A DNA stretch of 64,000 bases, taken from positions 165,843 to 229,842 of the forward strand of contig CAZDIP010000002.1 in the NCBI GenBank assembly GCA_964505635.1, given 5' to 3'. This document shows positions 1,251 to 53,989 of the stretch, in pieces. The position numbers and the translations under genes were made by a program. Each line of letters starts with the position of its first letter. Positions within the stretch are counted from its first letter, which is position 1. Origin of the DNA: an uncultured Candidatus Saccharibacteria bacterium (lineage in GTDB: Bacteria > Patescibacteriota > Doudnabacteria > UBA920). Below the pieces are notes generated by a model. That model was not told the DNA's origin. It did not search any database and saw nothing but the letters and a program-made list of their open reading frames with translations.

Positions 1251-4097
1251 TTATTTAATAGGATCCATCTCTCCCCAATTATCGCCCACTTTAGCTTCAG
1301 CCTTAATAGGAACGGATAAAGAAATTGCTTCTTCCATTAACTTCTTTATTATTTTGGCATAATGTTCTACCTTATCTTCCTTAACCTCAAATACCAATTC
1401 ATCATGCACCTGTAATAAATTTCGGATTTCGGATTTCGGATTTCGGATTTCTTTATGTATGTTTATCATCGCCACCTTTATTACATCTGCCGCCAAACTT
1501 TGTATGGGGAAATTAACCGCTGCCCTTTCCGCAGCCGCCCGAATAAAAAATTGGGAAGATTTAATTTCCGGAAACTTGCGCATTCGGCCTAATTCATTTC
1601 TCACAAAACCTTCCTGGTTAACCTGCAATTTAATTTGTTCAATATATTCTTCCACTTGCGGATAAGCTTTAAAATATTTTTCTATATACTGCTTGGCGTC
1701 CGCCCTGCTCATTTCACCCACGCGGGCAGAAAGCCCAAAACTGGACACGCCGTATAAAATGCCAAAGTTAATAGTTTTGGCATCGCGGCGCATATCTTTA
1801 GTTACTTGGGCGGCCTCAACTCCAAAAATTTCCATGGCGGTTTTTTCGTGAATATCTTCTTCGTCCTTAAACACCTGCATCATTTTTTTGTCTTGGGCCA
1901 AATGCGCGACTATTCGAAGTTCAATTTGCGAATAGTCCAAACTCAAAAGCTTAAAGCCTTTTTCTGCCACAAAAGCCTTGCGCACCTGGCTACCCAAACC
2001 TTCGCCCCTGACCGGGATATTTTGTAAATTGGGGTCAACAGAAGAAAGCCTGCCGGTAGCCGCAATCGTTTGGTTGTAACTGGTATGCAGCCGGCCGGTT
2101 TTTTTATTTACCATTTGGGGCAGCGTTGTTAAATAGGTGCTGTATAATTTCGCTACTTCCCTGTACTCTAAAATTTTTGGGATAATTTCGTGCTGTCCCA
2201 GCATTTTTTCCAAATTATCGGCCGAAGTGGACACTCCGGTTTTAGTACGCTTATTATTTATTGCTTCTAATTTTAGCTCGTCGAACAAAACTTCCTTAAG
2301 CTGCTTGGGGGAGGCGATATTAAATTCCCGGCCGGCTAATTTATAAATTTTGCCTTCCAAATCTTTTATAGAAATTTCCGCTTCCCCGGCCAGCTTGTTT
2401 AAAAGTTTAGTGTCTAATTTTATGCCGTTTAATTCCATGTCCGACAAAACTGCCACTAAAGGCATTTCTATTGTTTCAAAAACTTTAACAAGTCCGTTCT
2501 TTTTTAATTCCGGTTCAAATATTTCTTTAAGCCGCATTGTCATGTCCACATCTTCGCAGCAATACCAAGAAACTTTCTCTGGACTAACTTTGTCCATGGT
2601 AATTTGATCTTTGCCTTTGCCAATCAAATCTGTAATAGGCTGCATTTGGTAGCCCAGCTCGTTAAAAGCCAAGGCATCTAGCCCGTGCTGCCTGGTTCCG
2701 GCATTTAAAAGATATGAGGCTATCATCGTATCGAAGCTGATAACTGATAAATGATAACTGATAACTTTTAACACCTGTGCATCGTACTTTATGTTATGGC
2801 CGATTAGTTTTACTTTTCCAGACGTAAGTAAGGTTTTTAATTCAGGAGATGATAAAAATAGATCCGCGGGTACATAAAAAGCCTGGCCTGGCTTTACGCA
2901 AAAACCCACGCCCACCAATTCCGCGATAATTGGATCAAGCCCCGTGGTTTCCGTGTCAATTGATATTTCTGTAGTTTTCTGTAGTTCGGTAATTAATTTC
3001 TGTAGTTTTTCTTCCGTATCTACAAATATATAATCCTGTTTGCCAATAGCTTTTATTTCTTGATTCTGATCTGTAATGTCACCTCTTGCTACTTGATACT
3101 TGCCTGCCTCGCCGGCAGGCGGGCTTCCTGCTTCATTCTTCGGCAACTTCCCAAGCAAATTTCTAAATTCCAAGCTCTGAAACATCTTCACTGTCTTTTG
3201 CAAATGCTCCTGGTCTAATTCATACGCTTTAATTTCCGGGTCTATGCCCGGCACGTCGCAAATAATTTGCGAAAGTTCATACGACATTTTCGCCTGTTCT
3301 TCCTGTTCTTCTAAAAGCTTTAAAATTCTTTCTTTAATATTTTTTCGTGCTTGTGATTTTGGATTTCGGATTTGCTCATACAACTCTTTTATAGAATGGT
3401 ATTTTGAAATTAACTCGCTGCCTGTTTTTTCGCCAATGCCGCGCACGCCCGGGATGTTATCGCTCGGGTCGCCTCTTAAAGCTTTATAGTCCACCATTTG
3501 GTCGGGATTTAAGCCATAACGTTCCCTAACAGCCTTAGAGTCGTAAATTACAGTGTCGGTTAAGCCTTTTCTTGGCGCGTAAACCCTGACTTTGCCGTTT
3601 ACCAGCTGTAAAGTATCCATATCGCCGGTTAAAATAAATATCTCGGCATTCTCGTGGCTTTTGTCGTGAAAATGTTTGGACAAAGTTCCTAACACGTCGT
3701 CTGCCTCATAACCTTCCTTTTCATAAATTGGCACATTCATAGCCCTAAGCACGTCTTTAATTACCGGGATTTGGTCGTACAAAGCTTGGTCGGCCTTAAC
3801 CCTTGTTGCTTTATATTCTTTGTATTTTTCGTGCCTAAATGTAGGTCCGGCTAAATCAAAAGTCGCGGCTATGTGAGTAGCTTTTATATCCTTCATGGCC
3901 TTTAAAAATATAGTCAGAAAACCAAAAACTGCACCTGTTGGCCGTCCGTCTTTAGTGGTTAAATTAGGCAAAGCGTGATAGGCCCTGTGCACCAAGGCAT
4001 TCCCGTCTATTAAAAGATAGCGTTCACGCACACTTCCCCCTCTCCCTCTGGGAGAGGGTTGGGGTGAGGGTGAATTTTTAGATAGATATTCAGACAT
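1251..4097 (-). CDS. polA: DNA polymerase I
   Basis: 5'-nuclease N-terminus (LLIDGNALVHRAYHAL), 3'-5' exo and polymerase motifs (RRDAKTINFGILYG, LLQVHDELVFEV). Alternative GTG start at 4031 is preceded by a strong SD (AGGGGGAAG). Confidence 0.9.
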   Translation of the reverse strand: MSEYLSKNSPSPQPSPRGRGGSVRERYLLIDGNALVHRAYHALPNLTTKDGRPTGAVFGFLTIFLKAMKDIKATHIAATFDLAGPTFRHEKYKEYKATRVKADQALYDQIPVIKDVLRAMNVPIYEKEGYEADDVLGTLSKHFHDKSHENAEIFILTGDMDTLQLVNGKVRVYAPRKGLTDTVIYDSKAVRERYGLNPDQMVDYKALRGDPSDNIPGVRGIGEKTGSELISKYHSIKELYEQIRNPKSQARKNIKERILKLLEEQEEQAKMSYELSQIICDVPGIDPEIKAYELDQEHLQKTVKMFQSLEFRNLLGKLPKNEAGSPPAGEAGKYQVARGDITDQNQEIKAIGKQDYIFVDTEEKLQKLITELQKTTEISIDTETTGLDPIIAELVGVGFCVKPGQAFYVPADLFLSSPELKTLLTSGKVKLIGHNIKYDAQVLKVISYHLSVISFDTMIASYLLNAGTRQHGLDALAFNELGYQMQPITDLIGKGKDQITMDKVSPEKVSWYCCEDVDMTMRLKEIFEPELKKNGLVKVFETIEMPLVAVLSDMELNGIKLDTKLLNKLAGEAEISIKDLEGKIYKLAGREFNIASPKQLKEVLFDELKLEAINNKRTKTGVSTSADNLEKMLGQHEIIPKILEYREVAKLYSTYLTTLPQMVNKKTGRLHTSYNQTIAATGRLSSVDPNLQNIPVRGEGLGSQVRKAFVAEKGFKLLSLDYSQIELRIVAHLAQDKKMMQVFKDEEDIHEKTAMEIFGVEAAQVTKDMRRDAKTINFGILYGVSSFGLSARVGEMSRADAKQYIEKYFKAYPQVEEYIEQIKLQVNQEGFVRNELGRMRKFPEIKSSQFFIRAAAERAAVNFPIQSLAADVIKVAMINIHKEIRNPKSEIRNLLQVHDELVFEVKEDKVEHYAKIIKKLMEEAISLSVPIKAEAKVGDNWGEMDPIK
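4034..4075. repeat. GC-rich palindromic element (CCCTCTCCC-tct-GGGAGAGGG) at the polA 5' end
   Basis: Perfect 9-bp inverted repeat at 4038-4058 inside a GC-rich ~40-nt stretch that encodes the non-conserved SPSPQPSPRGRGG segment, or lies in the 5'UTR if the GTG start is used. Confidence 0.45.
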
Positions 4098-4140
4098 AAT
4101 CACATTATACCTAATTCCAAAAAGACGGTCATCATTTATC

Positions 4141-4203
4141 AAAAAATAAAAACAGGGGGAGGCGGGGGCGCTTGTGGCGCCCCGACCCCGATCCCTGTTT
4201 TCG
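4141..4203 (-). terminator. GC-rich hairpin terminator downstream of PEP-CTERM gene
   Basis: acagggggaggcgggggcgc/gcgccccgaccccgatccctgt imperfect long stem flanked by A/T runs. Confidence 0.45.
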
Positions 4204-4287
4204 AATGACGATGTCTTTACCGAGCCGGCGCCTATAGCGCCGGTAGTGCGCCCGCAGCTTGCGGGCATTGGTACGTTTTGGCATGGC

Positions 4288-5052
4288 CTAGCTCCTTCGG
4301 CGGAAAACGCCTACGGAGAGCAGTCCGAGACCAATCAGCCCCAACGATGCTGGTTCCGGCGTATCCGAAGGCTTTTCTGAAGGAAACACCGACGGAACCT
4401 GCGCATAGCCATACTTAGACCACTGCGTGGTGTGCATCTGCGCGTCAGGAAAACTCTCCTTAAACGCATATTGCCAGGTATCGCTGTTCTGATACTGGCC
4501 GAACATGTATGCTGTCCACCACCCGAAAGATTCGTAGCTGCGTTGAGCGTTGTTATTCCAGATGCTGGTCTGGGTGCACAATCCCAGGTCGTCGCAGGTA
4601 TAGTAATACGAGCTGAAAGACTTGGTCTTGTACGTGTCTACCGACGTGCTGCCACCGATAGACGAGTAGCCCGTCGTATCGGCGTAGGAGTACGTATTGT
4701 TCATTTGCGTGGTTACGGTTGAGGTGGACAGCTGACTGCCCGATCCCCAATCCGCCCCCCACATATCCACCCCGCTGTACTCGCCGTAGCTGTCCTGGTA
4801 GGAAACCGTTTTCCAGGAGTTGACCCAGAATACGTCCCGCGCAAACCACCCGTCGTAATATGAGCCATTGCCGGCTCCCGAGTCCGTTGTTGTGGTGCCG
4901 TAGGCCCACGTGCCAGAGTAGTTGCAGGACGTCACGGTGCCGTAGCTACACGGCTCGTTGTTGTACGTACCATAGCTGTAATTTTCCACCGTGATAGGGG
5001 TTGCGCTGGCCGTGGCCGCGAAAACAAAAAACAAAATCGTCAAAAAGTTCAT
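4288..5052 (-). CDS. PEP-CTERM sorting-domain secreted protein (S/T/Y/G/W-rich)
   Basis: N-terminal signal peptide MNFLTILFFVFAATASA. C-terminal PEPASLGLIGLGLLSVGVFRRRS (PEP motif, TM helix, Arg cluster). Local GC is markedly higher than flanks. Confidence 0.65.
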   Translation of the reverse strand: MNFLTILFFVFAATASATPITVENYSYGTYNNEPCSYGTVTSCNYSGTWAYGTTTTDSGAGNGSYYDGWFARDVFWVNSWKTVSYQDSYGEYSGVDMWGADWGSGSQLSTSTVTTQMNNTYSYADTTGYSSIGGSTSVDTYKTKSFSSYYYTCDDLGLCTQTSIWNNNAQRSYESFGWWTAYMFGQYQNSDTWQYAFKESFPDAQMHTTQWSKYGYAQVPSVFPSEKPSDTPEPASLGLIGLGLLSVGVFRRRS

Positions 5053-5212
5053 GGTGCCTCCTTATGGTTCCATGTGTCTGTTTGAGTCGTACGCAATTAA
5101 TGCCATCTTTTCGCCAAGTGGCTAAAGAAAAACATTTATATGTCACCACTGACTCGGTATAGTGACCTTATATTATACCTTATTTTAAGCTTTTTGTCAA
5201 TATCAAACAATA

Positions 5213-8264: not shown

Positions 8265-8669
8265 ATGAAGCCGGACATGCTGATAGAAATCAAAAATTCC
8301 AAAACAGCAGCGGAAAAAATAGCCCAAACCCTCAAGGGTGGAGAAATTATGGGGCTTATAGGCACTTTGGGCGCGGGAAAAACGACTTTTGTTCAACACC
8401 TTGGTAAGGTCCTTAATGTTAAACAGCGCATCACCAGTCCCGGTTTTAGCCTTATGAATATTTATTATGCTAAATTAAGCAGCGGGAAAAAAATTTACTT
8501 TTACCATTTGGATCTCTATAGGACGCGTAATTTTCGCGAGGTTAAAGACTTGGGCCTAACTGAGGTTTGGGGCAAAAAAAATGTAATTACCATTATTGAG
8601 TGGGCAAATAAAATTAACAAACATTTACCAACAAAAACCCGTATTTTAAAATTTTCCAATGAACATTAA
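8265..8669 (+). CDS. tsaE: tRNA threonylcarbamoyladenosine biosynthesis protein TsaE
   Basis: P-loop GLIGTLGAGKTTFVQ; size and context match the YjeE family. Confidence 0.8.
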   Translation: MKPDMLIEIKNSKTAAEKIAQTLKGGEIMGLIGTLGAGKTTFVQHLGKVLNVKQRITSPGFSLMNIYYAKLSSGKKIYFYHLDLYRTRNFREVKDLGLTEVWGKKNVITIIEWANKINKHLPTKTRILKFSNEH

Positions 8670-10012: not shown

Positions 10013-11056
10013 ATGATAACTTCATCTAACCAACAAGAAACTTCCGGTGTTATTCGGCAAGATATTGAACCCGAAGATCTTTTAATAGAGCAAAACCTGC
10101 GCCCGCAAATCCTGGATGAATACATTGGCCAGGCCTCGGTTAAAGAAAACCTCAAAGTTTTAATGCAGGCGGCAAAGCAAAGAGCGGAACATTTAGAGCA
10201 TTTGCTATTTTATGGCCCACCGGGTTTAGGTAAAACCACCCTGGCTCTGATTATAGCCAAAGAAATGGGTGCAAATATTAAAGTAACCTCCGGCCCGGCG
10301 ATTGAAAGGGCAGGCGACCTAGCTTCACTTTTAACCAACCTTTCCGAAGGTGATGTTTTGTTTATTGACGAAATTCATAGGCTTAACAAAGTGGTGGAAG
10401 AAGTCTTGTATCCTGCTATGGAAGACTTTATTTTAGACATTGTTCTTGGCAAAGGCCCGGGAGCCAGGAGTATTAGAATGGATTTGCCAAAATTCACGTT
10501 AATTGGAGCCACGACCAGAATCGGCTTAATCTCCAGTCCGCTAAGAGATCGTTTTGGAGCCACCTATCGCCTGGAGTACTACCAGCCCCACGAAATAAAA
10601 TCTATAATCCACCGTTCTAGCAAAATTTTAAACACCAATATAGAAGGAAGTGCGGCTTTAGAATTAGCCAACCGATCCCGCTTTACTCCGCGCATTGCCA
10701 ATAGACTGTTAAAGCGAGTGCGTGATTTTGTTCAAGTCCACAAGCGTGATACAATAGATCTAAACTCCGCGCAACAAGCCTTACAAATGCTAGAGGTTGA
10801 TTCTTTGGGATTAGATAAAAATGACTTAAGAATTCTTGACGCCCTGATTAACAAGTTTAACGGCAAGCCGGTCGGCCTCACCACCCTGGCAGCCGCAACC
10901 GGCGAGGAAGAGGACACAATAACCGATCTGCACGAACCCTTTTTACTACGGCTGGGGCTTATAACCAAAACCCCCAAAGGCCGGCAAGCCACCAAAAACG
11001 CCTACACTCACCTGGGTATAAATGCCCCGGAAAACTTACAAAACACTTTACTTTAA
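10013..11056 (+). CDS. ruvB: Holliday junction branch migration ATPase RuvB
   Basis: [15 protein letters not shown] Walker A, sensor and winged-helix regions. Confidence 0.92.
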
Positions 11057-12582: not shown

Positions 12583-13299
12583 CTAATTGTTTAAATAAGA
12601 AATAATCGACAAGCTTGCCAGCGCAGAAGTTTCTGACCGAAGAAAAATCGGCCCAAGTGATAGCGTCTTGCAGCTCGGCAGAGATTGTATCTGGTTAACC
12701 TCTTTTTGAGTAAAACCGCCTTCTGGGCCAATTATGATTGCAACATCGGGCATCTTGCCTCTAACATTTAACTTACCGCCTGCGATATCGCATAAATATA
12801 TTTGCTCAAAATTACCGGCTGATAAAATTACATCGTCTAATGCCTTCAAATATTCTAAAGTTGGCGGACAAACCCGGTCTGACTGCTTAGCCGCTTCCCA
12901 AAGTATTTTATTCCAACGCTCGTATTTCTTTTTAAATACTTCCGGCGTTATTTTTGTTGCCGTGTTTTGTGAATTAAAAAGGATAATTTTATGCGCCATA
13001 AGCTCTGTAGATTTTTGAAAAATAAAATCCAAAGCTTTTTCGCTGACAACTGATTGAAACAGGGTAATTTTTACCTCTGGTTCAGGGGGAGTTTGTATTT
13101 TTTTTAAAACCTTAACGGTCAAAGATTTTCTCTCGGCTTTTAAAATTTCAACAACAAACCTCTCTTCCCCCGCTCCTTGCAAATTAAAACTTTCCCCTTT
13201 TTTTATCCGACGTGAAAGTAAAATATGCACCGCCTCTTCGTCTGACAGTTCTGCAACCTGACCGGGTAATATTTTTTGATTTGTTAAAAAATAACTCAT
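12583..13299 (-). CDS. rsmE: 16S rRNA (uracil1498-N3)-methyltransferase
   Basis: IIGPEGGFT and LGPIFLRSETSALA motifs of RsmE. Confidence 0.8.
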   Translation of the reverse strand: MSYFLTNQKILPGQVAELSDEEAVHILLSRRIKKGESFNLQGAGEERFVVEILKAERKSLTVKVLKKIQTPPEPEVKITLFQSVVSEKALDFIFQKSTELMAHKIILFNSQNTATKITPEVFKKKYERWNKILWEAAKQSDRVCPPTLEYLKALDDVILSAGNFEQIYLCDIAGGKLNVRGKMPDVAIIIGPEGGFTQKEVNQIQSLPSCKTLSLGPIFLRSETSALASLSIISYLNN

Positions 13300-13304
13300 A
13301 CAAA

Positions 13305-13610
13305 CTAAAACTCAACGGCAATTGTAAAAACTAACTGCTTGCCCAAAACCTGGTTTAAAGCATGAACCATGCGGCTGGTTAAAATTTTAATTTGGTAGGC
13401 AATTTCCCTGCTCAAACAAGCAACAAACAAAACTCCTTTTTTAAAATCCAGCGCCCGGGTCTGCTCCCTGCCAGCTTCCATAAAAGTTTCGACAATTTTA
13501 TACCAACAGCTCAAAACCTGATAACGCACTAGCCCAGGTTTTATTTTTTTATTTTCTCCCACCTGGCTTAAAACTTGATCAATTTTTATGAACTGGGTTT
13601 TATTTTTCAT
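13305..13610 (-). CDS. DUF721/DciA-like protein
   Basis: ~100-aa protein immediately downstream of recF, which is the typical DUF721 context. Confidence 0.5.
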   Translation of the reverse strand: MKNKTQFIKIDQVLSQVGENKKIKPGLVRYQVLSCWYKIVETFMEAGREQTRALDFKKGVLFVACLSREIAYQIKILTSRMVHALNQVLGKQLVFTIAVEF

Positions 13611-24597: not shown

Positions 24598-24634
24598 AAA
24601 ACCCCCTTTCTAAACTAGAAAGGGGGTTTTATTT
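24598..24634 (+). terminator. rho-independent terminator after tyrS
   Basis: aaaccccctttctaaactagaaagggggtttt. Confidence 0.6.
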
Positions 24635-29690: not shown

Positions 29691-30680
29691 CTATAGCGTG
29701 GTTATTGGTCTGCTTTGAGTAATGTAGAATTTTCCTTTTTCATAAGCCCATTCTATGTCTTGGGGGTTTTTGTAATGTTGCTCAATTTTTTTACATACCT
29801 TGGCCAATTCTACAATTTGTTTGCCGCTAAGTTTTTGTTTTCCGCCAATTTTTTCCGCCAATTTTTTTTGTATATTTCCTTTTGAAGTTTTAGCAATCAT
29901 CATACTCTGCCGGGAAATATTTATGTCTAAAATGGAAAAATCTTTTTTGTGCACAATATAAGTGTCAGGTGTAATAAGTCCTCCAACAATAGCCTCGCCA
30001 AGTCCAAAGCCTGCTTCTATAACCATCTGGTCATAATCTTTGGTAACCGGATGTACGGTAAAGCTAATTCCGCTTACTTCGCTTTGGACCATTTTTTGCA
30101 CCACCACTGCCACGGAAACTTTGGTTTTATGAAGTTTTTTTTCAAACCTGTAAAATATAGCCCTTGGGGTAAACAAGGAAGACCAACATTTCTTTACCTG
30201 TTTTATTACATCTTTTTCTGTAACGTTTAAATAGGTTTCCAATTCCCCTGCCCAGGAAGCGACCTTGCTGTCCTCTGCCGTGGCGCTGGATCTGACCGCC
30301 ACTAGTTGTAGTAATCCCCTCCTAGAATAGGAGGGGTGTCTCGCTAAACGGGACGGGGTGGTATTAAATAATTTATCATAAGCTTCCATAATCCCTTTTT
30401 GTAAATCTTTAGGCATATCAACGTCTAAAATCATCCTTCTTATTTCCGCACTAGCTTTGTCTACTGAATTTATGTCTTTATGGTTTACTTTTTTTTGTAC
30501 GGATTCTATTTCTGCGTCTAAGTCTGTTTCTTTTAAAAATTGGTCAAAGGCTGAGGCCAGCACAACAAAGCCCGGCGGCACGGACATTCCTGCCCCTGTC
30601 ATCTCTCCCAAAGAAGCGCCTTTACCACCTGCAATCGCGACATCTTTTTTTGAAAGTTGTTTAAAAGTTTTTATAAACAT
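29691..30680 (-). CDS. stand-alone PEP-utilising-enzyme ATP-grasp module (PPDK_N domain only)
   Basis: KDVAIAGGKGASLGEM and VAVRSSATAED motifs of the PpsA/RPH ATP-binding domain; no His-swivel or PEP/pyruvate domain. Confidence 0.8.
   Translation of the reverse strand: MFIKTFKQLSKKDVAIAGGKGASLGEMTGAGMSVPPGFVVLASAFDQFLKETDLDAEIESVQKKVNHKDINSVDKASAEIRRMILDVDMPKDLQKGIMEAYDKLFNTTPSRLARHPSYSRRGLLQLVAVRSSATAEDSKVASWAGELETYLNVTEKDVIKQVKKCWSSLFTPRAIFYRFEKKLHKTKVSVAVVVQKMVQSEVSGISFTVHPVTKDYDQMVIEAGFGLGEAIVGGLITPDTYIVHKKDFSILDINISRQSMMIAKTSKGNIQKKLAEKIGGKQKLSGKQIVELAKVCKKIEQHYKNPQDIEWAYEKGKFYITQSRPITTL
30299..30368. repeat. GC-rich palindromic in-frame insertion inside ATP-grasp gene
   Basis: CCCCTCCT-agaat-AGGAGGGG inverted repeat (30316-30336) encoding extra residues before the conserved VAVRSSATAED. 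Confidence 0.4.
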
Positions 30681-38024: not shown

Positions 38025-38052
38025 AAAATTGACCAAAGACCAGGCGTAATTT

Positions 38053-38086
38053 GTACCCGTTTCTAACGGCCGTTAGAAACGGGTAC
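38053..38086. promoter_or_regulatory. perfect 34-bp palindrome GTACCCGTTTCTAACGGCCGTTAGAAACGGGTAC
   Basis: 15-bp arms around a GGCC centre; 28 nt downstream of the PaaX-like gene and ~35 nt upstream of the tRNA-Ile promoter. Confidence 0.5.
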
Positions 38087-38120
38087 AAAGGCTTTATATT
38101 TATTGTGATGGATTATGGCC

Positions 38121-38648: not shown

Positions 38649-38677
38649 AAAACTCCTCCGCAAGAGCGGAGGAGTTT
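38649..38677. terminator. rho-independent terminator (shared by convergent genes)
   Basis: aaactcctccgc-aaga-gcggaggagtttt. Confidence 0.55.
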
Positions 38678-49488: not shown

Positions 49489-49715
49489 TTTGTGGAGCGC
49501 CTAACCCCGCATAACTAGAAAACTCGTATGCGGGGCGTGGCGGGAAGTTTCCAATTCCCTTTGACAAATGAAAAAACTTTCACAAAATTGTGAAAGTTTT
49601 TTCATTGGAGCGGGTAATCCACCTACGCTAAAGCTTCGGCGGACAGGCGGGAAAAGTTCTCATTCCCACTGACAAAAAGAAAATGCCCGACCGTTGAGGT
49701 CAGGCATATTCTTTT
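49489..49715. repeat. two ~110-bp tandem repeat units, each beginning with a copy of the tRNA-Gly 3' end (TGGAGCG[GG/CC]TAA) and ending in a terminator-like hairpin
   Basis: unit1 49492-49600, unit2 49606-49715; shared GGCGGGAA(A)AGTT.C.ATTCCC..TGACAAA core; unit3 is the intact tRNA-Gly. Confidence 0.5.
49679..49715 (-). terminator. terminator hairpin downstream of tRNA-Gly
   Basis: atgcctgacc-tcaac-ggtcgggcat stem (with a G-U) followed by uuuuc on the minus strand. Confidence 0.45.
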
Positions 49716-53818: not shown

Positions 53819-53846
53819 AGTTACTTTATTGATTGAAATATTTTTT

Positions 53847-53882
53847 ATCAACTTTTTTACGCAATTGCGTAAAAAAGTTGAT
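53847..53882. promoter_or_regulatory. perfect 36-bp palindrome ATCAACTTTTTTACGCAATTGCGTAAAAAAGTTGAT between convergent genes
   Basis: 16-bp arms around an AATT centre; T/A runs lie inside the arms rather than trailing them. Confidence 0.4.
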
Positions 53883-53989
53883 AAACTGAGATTGTTGAAA
53901 GTTTAAATAAGAGTTATTAGCCCGCAAAAATCAAATTTAATGGGGGCTGATTTTGAATCAACGCAATAATTACTATTTTAATTTAGCTG

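Follow-up and report, generated by a model that had tools for sequence, protein, structure and literature searches.

Probable in-frame copies of BoxC/PIT/TM-class palindromic repeats in polA and an ATP-grasp gene of a Patescibacteria genome

The 64-kb window analysed here (that is, the whole stretch of DNA, 64,000 nucleotides) carries polA and a gene encoding a phosphoenolpyruvate (PEP)/pyruvate-binding ATP-grasp protein, the products of which (P0001 and P0121, respectively) match database entries from a 235-kb NCBI contig exactly and have their closest named relatives in Candidatus Doudnabacteria (Patescibacteria, or candidate phyla radiation, CPR). Each gene contains a short GC-rich palindrome in its reading frame, site 1 in polA (4038-4058) and site 2 in the ATP-grasp gene (30316-30336). 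A preliminary description of this DNA had reported both palindromes together with an in-frame GTG at 4031, and all of these positions proved correct. It had also proposed that the two palindromes are related and represent a family of elements that colonises coding regions of this genome. We show below that site 1 closely matches a repeat class known as BoxC, PIT or triplex motif (TM), and we argue, with a probability of about 75%, that both sites are intragenic copies of this class, tolerated in-frame as selfish passengers. BoxC/PIT elements were reportedly dealt with in earlier literature by Bergler in 1992 and by Hoyne and Maher in 2000.

Site 1 consists of a pyrimidine arm, a short loop, a purine arm and a G-rich third block (Table 1). 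The 9-bp stem is stable when folded as RNA (about -18 to -19 kcal/mol), and the third block is the mirror repeat of the purine arm except for a single A to T change. Complete with this block, site 1 is a 34-nt TM. When it is set beside TM_ECO (Holder et al. 2015), 30-31 of its 34 bases are identical; all three 9-nt blocks (27 positions) equal those of E. coli TM_ECO, and the differences from E. coli copies such as CCCTCTCCCTGTGGGAGAGGGCCGGGGTGAGGGC are confined to the loops and the final base. The ITxF definition of a triplex asks for a pyrimidine block, its complement and a G-rich mirror third block, with stems of 6-15 nt and loops of 1-6 nt, and site 1 lies within it with blocks of 9/9/9 nt and loops of 3 and 2-3 nt. 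In a BLAST search, the 51-mer around site 1 was found, at 80-95% identity, in 5374 of the 5426 complete E. coli genomes; each genome has a median of 12 such places, and the matches listed do not overlap any annotated feature. A TM pattern built from the same site was found at no fewer than 120 loci in viral contigs. A scan of the site 1 region (3800-4400) against Rfam returned no family, the microRNA and small RNA matches being at chance level, with 14-21 bits against gathering thresholds of 74-100 bits. By its sequence, site 1 belongs to the BoxC/PIT/TM_ECO G/C-rich intrastrand triplex motif as a canonical member.

Site 2 is a composite version of the same design. Its likeness to the E. coli TM consensus lies in architecture alone, not in sequence: the blocks are 8 nt long, loop 1 is 5 nt, and loop 2, at 18 nt, exceeds the ITxF limit and accommodates an additional hairpin. 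The 8-mer class to which its third block belongs occurs 10 times in 128 kb, so that 0.002 occurrences are expected per 30 nt (p ~0.002). The composite order (third block, GTCCCG...CGGGAC hairpin, pyrimidine/purine hairpin) recurs in three related loci, L124 (15991), L134 (5131) and L150 (9959), and the aligned copies yield the rough consensus aCCTC(A/T)CCCC-nn-CCCTCTCCt-loop-aGGAGAGGG-gRAAt. The kinship between the two palindromes claimed in the preliminary description stands, and it extends to the whole three-block architecture: a pyrimidine arm, a purine arm and a mirror third block, the last of which had been overlooked. An intrinsic terminator was also considered for sites 1 and 2; the terminator scan called neither, and this reading was rejected for both because a T-run is absent downstream.

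The DNA inserted at site 2 (30303-30368) is 53% GC compared with 39% for the gene, and the reading frame is intact on both sides of it. The encoded protein, which includes the stretch TTPSRLARHPSYSRRG, reads ...TTPSRLARHPSYSRRGLLQL-VAVRSSATAED, with the insert immediately preceding the conserved VAVRSSATAED. In an AlphaFold2 model, the inserted segment lies between a helix (residues 91-106) and a strand (residues 127-133), and residues 109-122 have predicted local distance difference test scores (pLDDT) below 50; the insert is thus modelled as a disordered loop. The corresponding position is a short variable loop in solved PEP synthases.

Table 1 Coordinates of the repeats, the genes that contain them and the associated features in the window
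Feature	Position	Strand	Description
polA CDS	1251..4097	-	948 aa, identical to P0001; annotated start ATG 4097
Promoter-like ATGACC-17-TATAAT	4104..4132	-	-10 box ends 6 nt before ATG 4097; leaderless arrangement
In-frame alternative GTG start	4029..4031	-	just downstream of the purine arm
Site 1 hairpin	4038..4058		pyrimidine arm CCCTCTCCC (4038-4046), loop TCT (4047-4049), purine arm GGGAGAGGG (4050-4058)
Site 1 third block (G)GGGTGAGGG	4061..4070	+	after TT; GGGTGAGGG at 4062-4070
PEP/pyruvate-binding ATP-grasp protein (PPDK_N, PF01326)	29691..30680	-	329 aa, P0121
Segment encoding FNTTPSRLARHPSYSRRGLLQL	30303..30368	-	residues 105-126; replaces K-x-K-F; net +18 aa
Site 2 hairpin	30316..30336		CCCCTCCT (30316-30323), loop AGAAT, AGGAGGGG (30329-30336)
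Inner hairpin GTCTCG-CTAAA-CGGGAC	30338..30354		nested in site 2 loop 2 (18 nt)
Site 2 third block GGGGTGGT	30355..30362	+	mirror of AGGAGGGG, A to T
Intergenic hairpin CCCCCTTTCT...AGAAAGGGGG	24602-24626		A-run and T-run flanks, without third block
Intergenic hairpin CTCCTCC...GGAGGAG	38653-38674		A-run and T-run flanks, without third block

Perfect hairpins of at least 7 bp with an all-pyrimidine 5' arm of at least 60% C number four in the window and none in 50 shuffles. Besides sites 1 and 2, the four include the hairpins at 24602 and 38653, both of which look like bidirectional terminators. None of 100 shuffles contains a match to the site 1 36-mer. Across 1.31 Mb of related Patescibacteria DNA, 30 such hairpins were found compared with 0-1 after randomisation, and 23 of these 30 have a mirror third block at most 30 nt away, where 5.2 would be expected. 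In folding tests, the bare 42-mers of the two sites give unremarkable z-scores of -0.4 and -1.4, because shuffled C/G-block sequences pair too, and the 81-91-nt contexts give -3.0 and -2.5. Site 2 was also recovered, at 100% identity over 1639 nt, in an independent Logan assembly of SRR16481186, which excludes an assembly artefact there. These numbers bear on the view that the palindromes have nothing to do with each other and reflect chance, base composition or faulty assembly in low-complexity segments that evolve fast. Such a view can point to the different arms of the two sites (CCCTCTCCC against CCCCTCCT), to a second loop at site 2 beyond the limits of published triplex finders, and to the presence of two copies only, one canonical and one composite, in 64 kb. 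It is contradicted by the absence of such hairpins from shuffled sequence, by the significance of the third block and by the occurrence of the same elements in many independent assemblies and genomes, and we regard it as extremely improbable.

At site 1, whether the repeat is translated depends on the start codon of polA. The minus strand, which is the polA strand, encodes SPSPQPSPRGRGG across site 1, with the TM occupying roughly codons 9-21. The closest PolA orthologues (82-83% identity) have the N-terminus MNKERYLLIDG or MINKEKYLLIDG, without the Ser/Pro-Arg/Gly stretch, and P0002-P0004 are free of the insert. The annotated ATG at 4097 is preceded by a promoter-like element in a leaderless arrangement (Table 1), and this TATAAT-N6-ATG configuration is found at the polA start of all nine clade loci inspected: the window, L121, L122 and L206-L211, the last being the six closest metagenomic polA loci. 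L122 has the configuration and lacks the repeat. More generally, a -10 box followed after 5-7 nt by the ATG of an open reading frame (ORF) of at least 60 aa occurs eight times in the window (at 8265, 8659 and 43369 on the plus strand, and at 30680, 26970, 23351, 13610 and 4097 on the minus strand), compared with 0-1 times in random sequence; the start at 30680 is that of the ATP-grasp gene. Shine-Dalgarno (SD)-like motifs precede 11 of 49 long ORFs of the window, and leaderless mRNAs seem to be common in this genome. Because polA appears leaderless across the clade, it probably starts at ATG 4097; the TM would then lie inside the coding sequence, and the repeat probably contributes SPSPQPSPRGRGG to PolA.

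The alternative is that site 1 is an untranslated attenuator in the 5' leader, with PolA made from GTG 4031 and the hairpin sequestering an SD sequence, GGGAGAGGGGG, that lies within the purine arm 4-7 nt upstream. The preliminary description had offered a similar hairpin, one masking the ribosome-binding site, as one of two options for site 1. Initiation at this GTG, which is in frame, would give M-RERYLLIDG, close to the MNKERYLLIDG of the orthologues; in L121 a degenerate TM is followed by AGGAG about 11 nt upstream of the ATG of M-LIDG; and the site 1 hairpin is stable. Against this stand the TATAAT-N6-ATG kept at nine of nine clade polA starts, the element-free L122 included, the enrichment of leaderless-type starts in the window and the scarcity of SD-like motifs before its ORFs. 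In addition, an attenuator offers no account of site 2, the location of which inside a conserved domain is certain. We therefore prefer the conserved leaderless ATG to an SD-led start at GTG 4031, which we judge the less likely of the two, and consider the attenuator as a whole rather unlikely.

The L121 locus deserves a further word. Its Doudnabacteria polA (P0057, 66% identity) carries a degenerate TM, CACCCTCACC-TAG-CCTCTCCC-CTCAA-GGGAGAGG, the position and frame of which correspond to those of site 1, and among 120 PolA homologues this is the only other TM-like N-terminus. We also considered the 5' end of polA as a general hot spot, and this was rejected since a GC hairpin is present in none of 49 further polA 5' regions. 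Beside the coding TM copy, L121 has an imperfect palindrome, CCCCTCTTAttTTAAGAGGaGGG (2960-2985), which covers the -35 region of the P0057 polA promoter. Within the window polA itself, the linker that joins the 5'-nuclease domain to the 3'-5' exonuclease domain includes EAGSPPAGEAG, which is encoded by a GC-rich hairpin, GCCTGCC-GGCGA-GGCAGGC, at 3099-3134.

Site 2 lies at an insertion hot spot. Among 120 homologues of the ATP-grasp protein (63-100% identity; modal length 311 aa), 87 have K-x-K-F before VAVRSS, and the other 33 have 13-43 residues at the same position. A neighbour-joining tree from which the insert columns were left out requires no fewer than 15 state changes to account for the insert, the root state being "no insert", and the insert-free proteins P0123 and P0124 are among the nearest tree neighbours of the window protein. 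Thus, inserts have been gained or lost recurrently at this loop. Together with the insert-free PolA orthologues, P0123 and P0124 bear out the earlier suggestion that both segments are lineage-specific in-frame insertions.

What fills the loop is diverse, and much of it belongs to the same family. The inserted DNA forms a strong hairpin in nearly all cases. Full three-block TMs are present in the ATP-grasp inserts of L124, L142, L204 and L205, that of L204 reading CCTCTCCCC-AA-CCCTCCCC-ACGCCT-GGGGAGGG, and hairpins of unrelated types are found at the same site in L134 and L155. At the protein level, the insert STSPQPSPRLGRG of P0127 is almost the site 1 peptide, and further TM-encoded inserts are PSPRPSPKGRGG, HPSPPIPLPRGEGG and SPTSPNPSSGRRG. 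When filled sites (window, L204, L205 and L124) were compared with an empty one (L203), neither a target-site duplication nor a clean boundary could be discerned. A second insertion hot spot of the same protein follows FYAFEKGFYK, in L124 (10600-10700; P0143) and also in P0173 and P0221, and the ATP-grasp gene of L124 is interrupted twice. The TM hairpin at the second hot spot of L124, CCCCTCCC...GGGAGGGG, has a further element nested in its loop, which encodes SFAKATADKQ. The peptide KKSPTSPNPSSGRRGI is present in both of the orthologues P0143 and P0173, at a different position in each.

Copies are also found in other genes of related genomes. L167 contains two copies of a 96-nt element (10306-10400 and 13224-13316), 91% identical (87 of 96) and 3 kb apart, with 9-bp terminal inverted repeats, AGACCTCTC...GAGAGGTCT; one lies in-frame in the ATP-grasp gene and the other in that for MnmA, so that near-identical copies reside in unrelated genes of one genome. 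TM-type copies break RecG in L124, where about 64 residues are missing from the L166 orthologue, and another interrupts a YrdC-like gene in L136 relative to its orthologues. The inter-domain linker of PolA is hypervariable and contains repeat-encoded peptides in homologues, for example LTPALSRGERE in P0024; that of P0025 and P0028 contains RSLSSLSEEEYPAKRGE, which is identical to the peptide inserted in L124 RecG. Counting the window and L121-L202 together, 12 of 28 related hairpins fall within ORFs of at least 100 aa, and the related loci hold at most three such hairpins per 21 kb (L124 and L134). The orientation of the copies is biased inside genes: of 15 intragenic copies, 13 have the C-rich strand as sense strand, compared with a 5:5 split among intergenic ones. 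This strand is free of stop codons in all three frames, and GGGTGAGGG has TGA in one frame. The bias fits selection for translatability.

The observations on recurrence and architecture could also be explained if the repeats were DNA or RNA signals of benefit to the host, such as switches based on a triplex or on G-quadruplex/hairpin forms, at which replication, transcription or translation would pause, or devices that create local variability; they would then be kept at these positions on account of that function. The three-block architecture is kept from E. coli to Patescibacteria, and the same ATP-grasp loop is hit again and again. In vitro, a single strand of the E. coli TM folds into a stable triplex, and the motif has been associated with genomic instability nearby (Holder et al. 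2015, PMC4666352); Kaplan et al. (2016, PMC5100583) have proposed that this sequence acts as a switch between G-quadruplex, hairpin and duplex. Yet the repeats are missing from the closest orthologues of both genes, the inserts at the hot spot vary freely in sequence, length and element type, and the orientation bias is confined to intragenic copies, where it matches selection for translatability. Published tests in E. coli, moreover, yielded no promoter or terminator activity and no in vivo triplex signal (see Holder et al. 2015, PMC4666352, for the earlier promoter and terminator tests). We consider a host function of this kind very unlikely.

We favour instead the reading given at the outset, in which BoxC/PIT/TM-class repeats are passengers. 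These would be short, non-autonomous, GC-rich elements made of a pyrimidine arm, a short loop, a purine arm and a mirror third block. In both window copies the C-rich strand would be read as sense, giving low-complexity peptides in which Ser/Pro is followed by Arg/Gly. The peptide of site 1 would form an N-terminal extension of PolA ahead of its first conserved strand, and that of site 2 a disordered loop on the surface of the ATP-grasp domain, flanked by a helix and the VAVRSS strand. The copies may have arisen by duplicative spread of a selfish element, and selection in compact genomes would then retain those that are in-frame, stop-free and located in permissive loops, linkers or termini. 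They would be tolerated passengers and not functional modules, as proposed for Rickettsia palindromic elements (PMC10969869).

Several points weigh against this reading. The window shows two copies only, and the notion put forward in the preliminary description, that the family colonises this genome, therefore leans mainly on related genomes; the family itself exists, although it is cross-phylum and not specific to this genome. The 5' end of polA is not itself a hot spot, as the 49 hairpin-free loci indicate, and the polA copies of the window and L121 could be independent or ancestral. The polA start codon is one that we infer, and there is a GTG inside the gene that has the SD-like purine arm in front of it. 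The tree that gives at least 15 events uses a short, highly similar protein, so that recombination between alleles could inflate the count. Target-site duplications, clean boundaries and a transposase were not found, no transposase search having been made, and the flanks of site 2 have diverged. Finally, the neutrality of the inserts is an assumption.

A wider proposal can be formulated, which we put forward only tentatively: TM/BoxC repeats may be an actively mobile, cross-phylum element, shared by E. coli, Patescibacteria and phage-like contigs, that is repeatedly delivered into genes of ultrasmall bacteria, perhaps via single-stranded DNA hairpins or through repair. The VAVRSS loop, the PolA linker and N-terminus, RecG and MnmA would then be hot spots of peptide insertion.

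Other features of the window were noted. Between pilB and polA lies a GC-rich island (4132-5200; 55-65% GC compared with about 40% around it), which may have been horizontally acquired. It encodes a protein with a PEP-CTERM motif (4288-5052, minus strand; PF07589, E=1.8e-6), the gene for which has a perfect TTGACA-17-TATAAT promoter (5200-5172), and a highly basic ORF of 50 aa (4132-4284, minus strand) that overlaps GC-rich hairpins at 4165-4183, 4225-4243 and 4250-4266. Perfect AT-rich palindromes are located at 53844-53885 (21+21 nt, no spacer), 38050-38089 (20+20, no spacer) and 49567-49606 (19+19, 2-nt spacer); they may be operators or origins. The stretch from 36000 to 58000 has 43-49% GC compared with 35-41% elsewhere in the window and may be of different origin or a mobile region.

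BoxC/PIT/TM repeats have been known for 30 years, without an established function or mode of spread, and have been described as strictly intergenic. The data presented here suggest that the same 34-nt motif and its composite derivatives sit in the reading frames of essential genes in many Patescibacteria, one loop having apparently been hit at least about 15 times. Both in-frame palindromic elements and the TM family were already known; the in-frame colonisation of genes in Patescibacteria appears to be undescribed, and we found no report in the open-access literature of intragenic TM/BoxC-type repeats, or of any such intragenic repeat system, in this group. The concept of selfish DNA in coding regions would thereby reach beyond Rickettsia, into a huge radiation of bacteria with reduced genomes. 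The naturally filled and empty sites provide material for studying how repeats move and what proteins tolerate. Caution is also called for in annotation, since repeats can be the source of segments rich in Ser/Pro-Arg/Gly and of over-long N-termini in CPR proteins.

Four known systems invite comparison. Firstly, REP/REPIN elements (repetitive extragenic palindromic sequences, which are mobilised by RAYT Y1 transposases) are likewise short GC-rich hairpins, asymmetric and orientation-sensitive. By description they differ in being extragenic and in having GTAG/CGTC heads and arms that are not homopurine/homopyrimidine. Secondly, intragenic MITEs (miniature transposable elements with inverted repeats) and ERIC (enterobacterial repetitive intergenic consensus) elements (Delihas 2007; PMC10969869) are also small and non-autonomous, have inverted termini and can form in-frame fusions; the 96-nt element of L167 has 9-bp terminal inverted repeats. 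No target-site duplication is discernible at the window sites, and the window copies are far shorter than typical MITEs.

Thirdly, Rickettsia palindromic elements (RPEs; Ogata et al.) are palindromic repeats found in-frame in unrelated housekeeping genes of a reduced genome, where the sites that receive the extra peptide are structurally permissive and orthologues without the insert exist. The preliminary description had drawn this analogy, and it is a sound one as regards in-frame insertion into conserved genes with insert-free orthologues. By description, RPEs are set apart from the present elements: they measure about 100-150 bp, are Rickettsia-specific and fall into ten families, whereas the elements here measure 34-66 nt (34 for site 1, about 47-66 for site 2), are rich in G and C, have homopyrimidine/homopurine arms and form part of a family that crosses phyla.

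Finally, there is the BoxC/PIT/TM family itself, which is multi-copy and cross-phylum and has no known mobilising enzyme. The blocks CCCTCTCCC, GGGAGAGGG and GGGTGAGGG of site 1 are identical to those of this family, and the loops are 3 nt long. Triplex formation was demonstrated in vitro for an E. coli sequence with the same three blocks; for the window sites, hairpin folding was computed. Holder et al. (2015, PMC4666352) record TMs in more than 260 genomes and report that those of E. coli always lie between genes, in contrast to the window copies, both of which lie in ORFs conserved on either side. The window host also differs, being a member of the Patescibacteria with 39-41% GC, outside the 2015 survey, and site 2 departs from the canonical form in its composite build, with an extra hairpin held in its long second loop.

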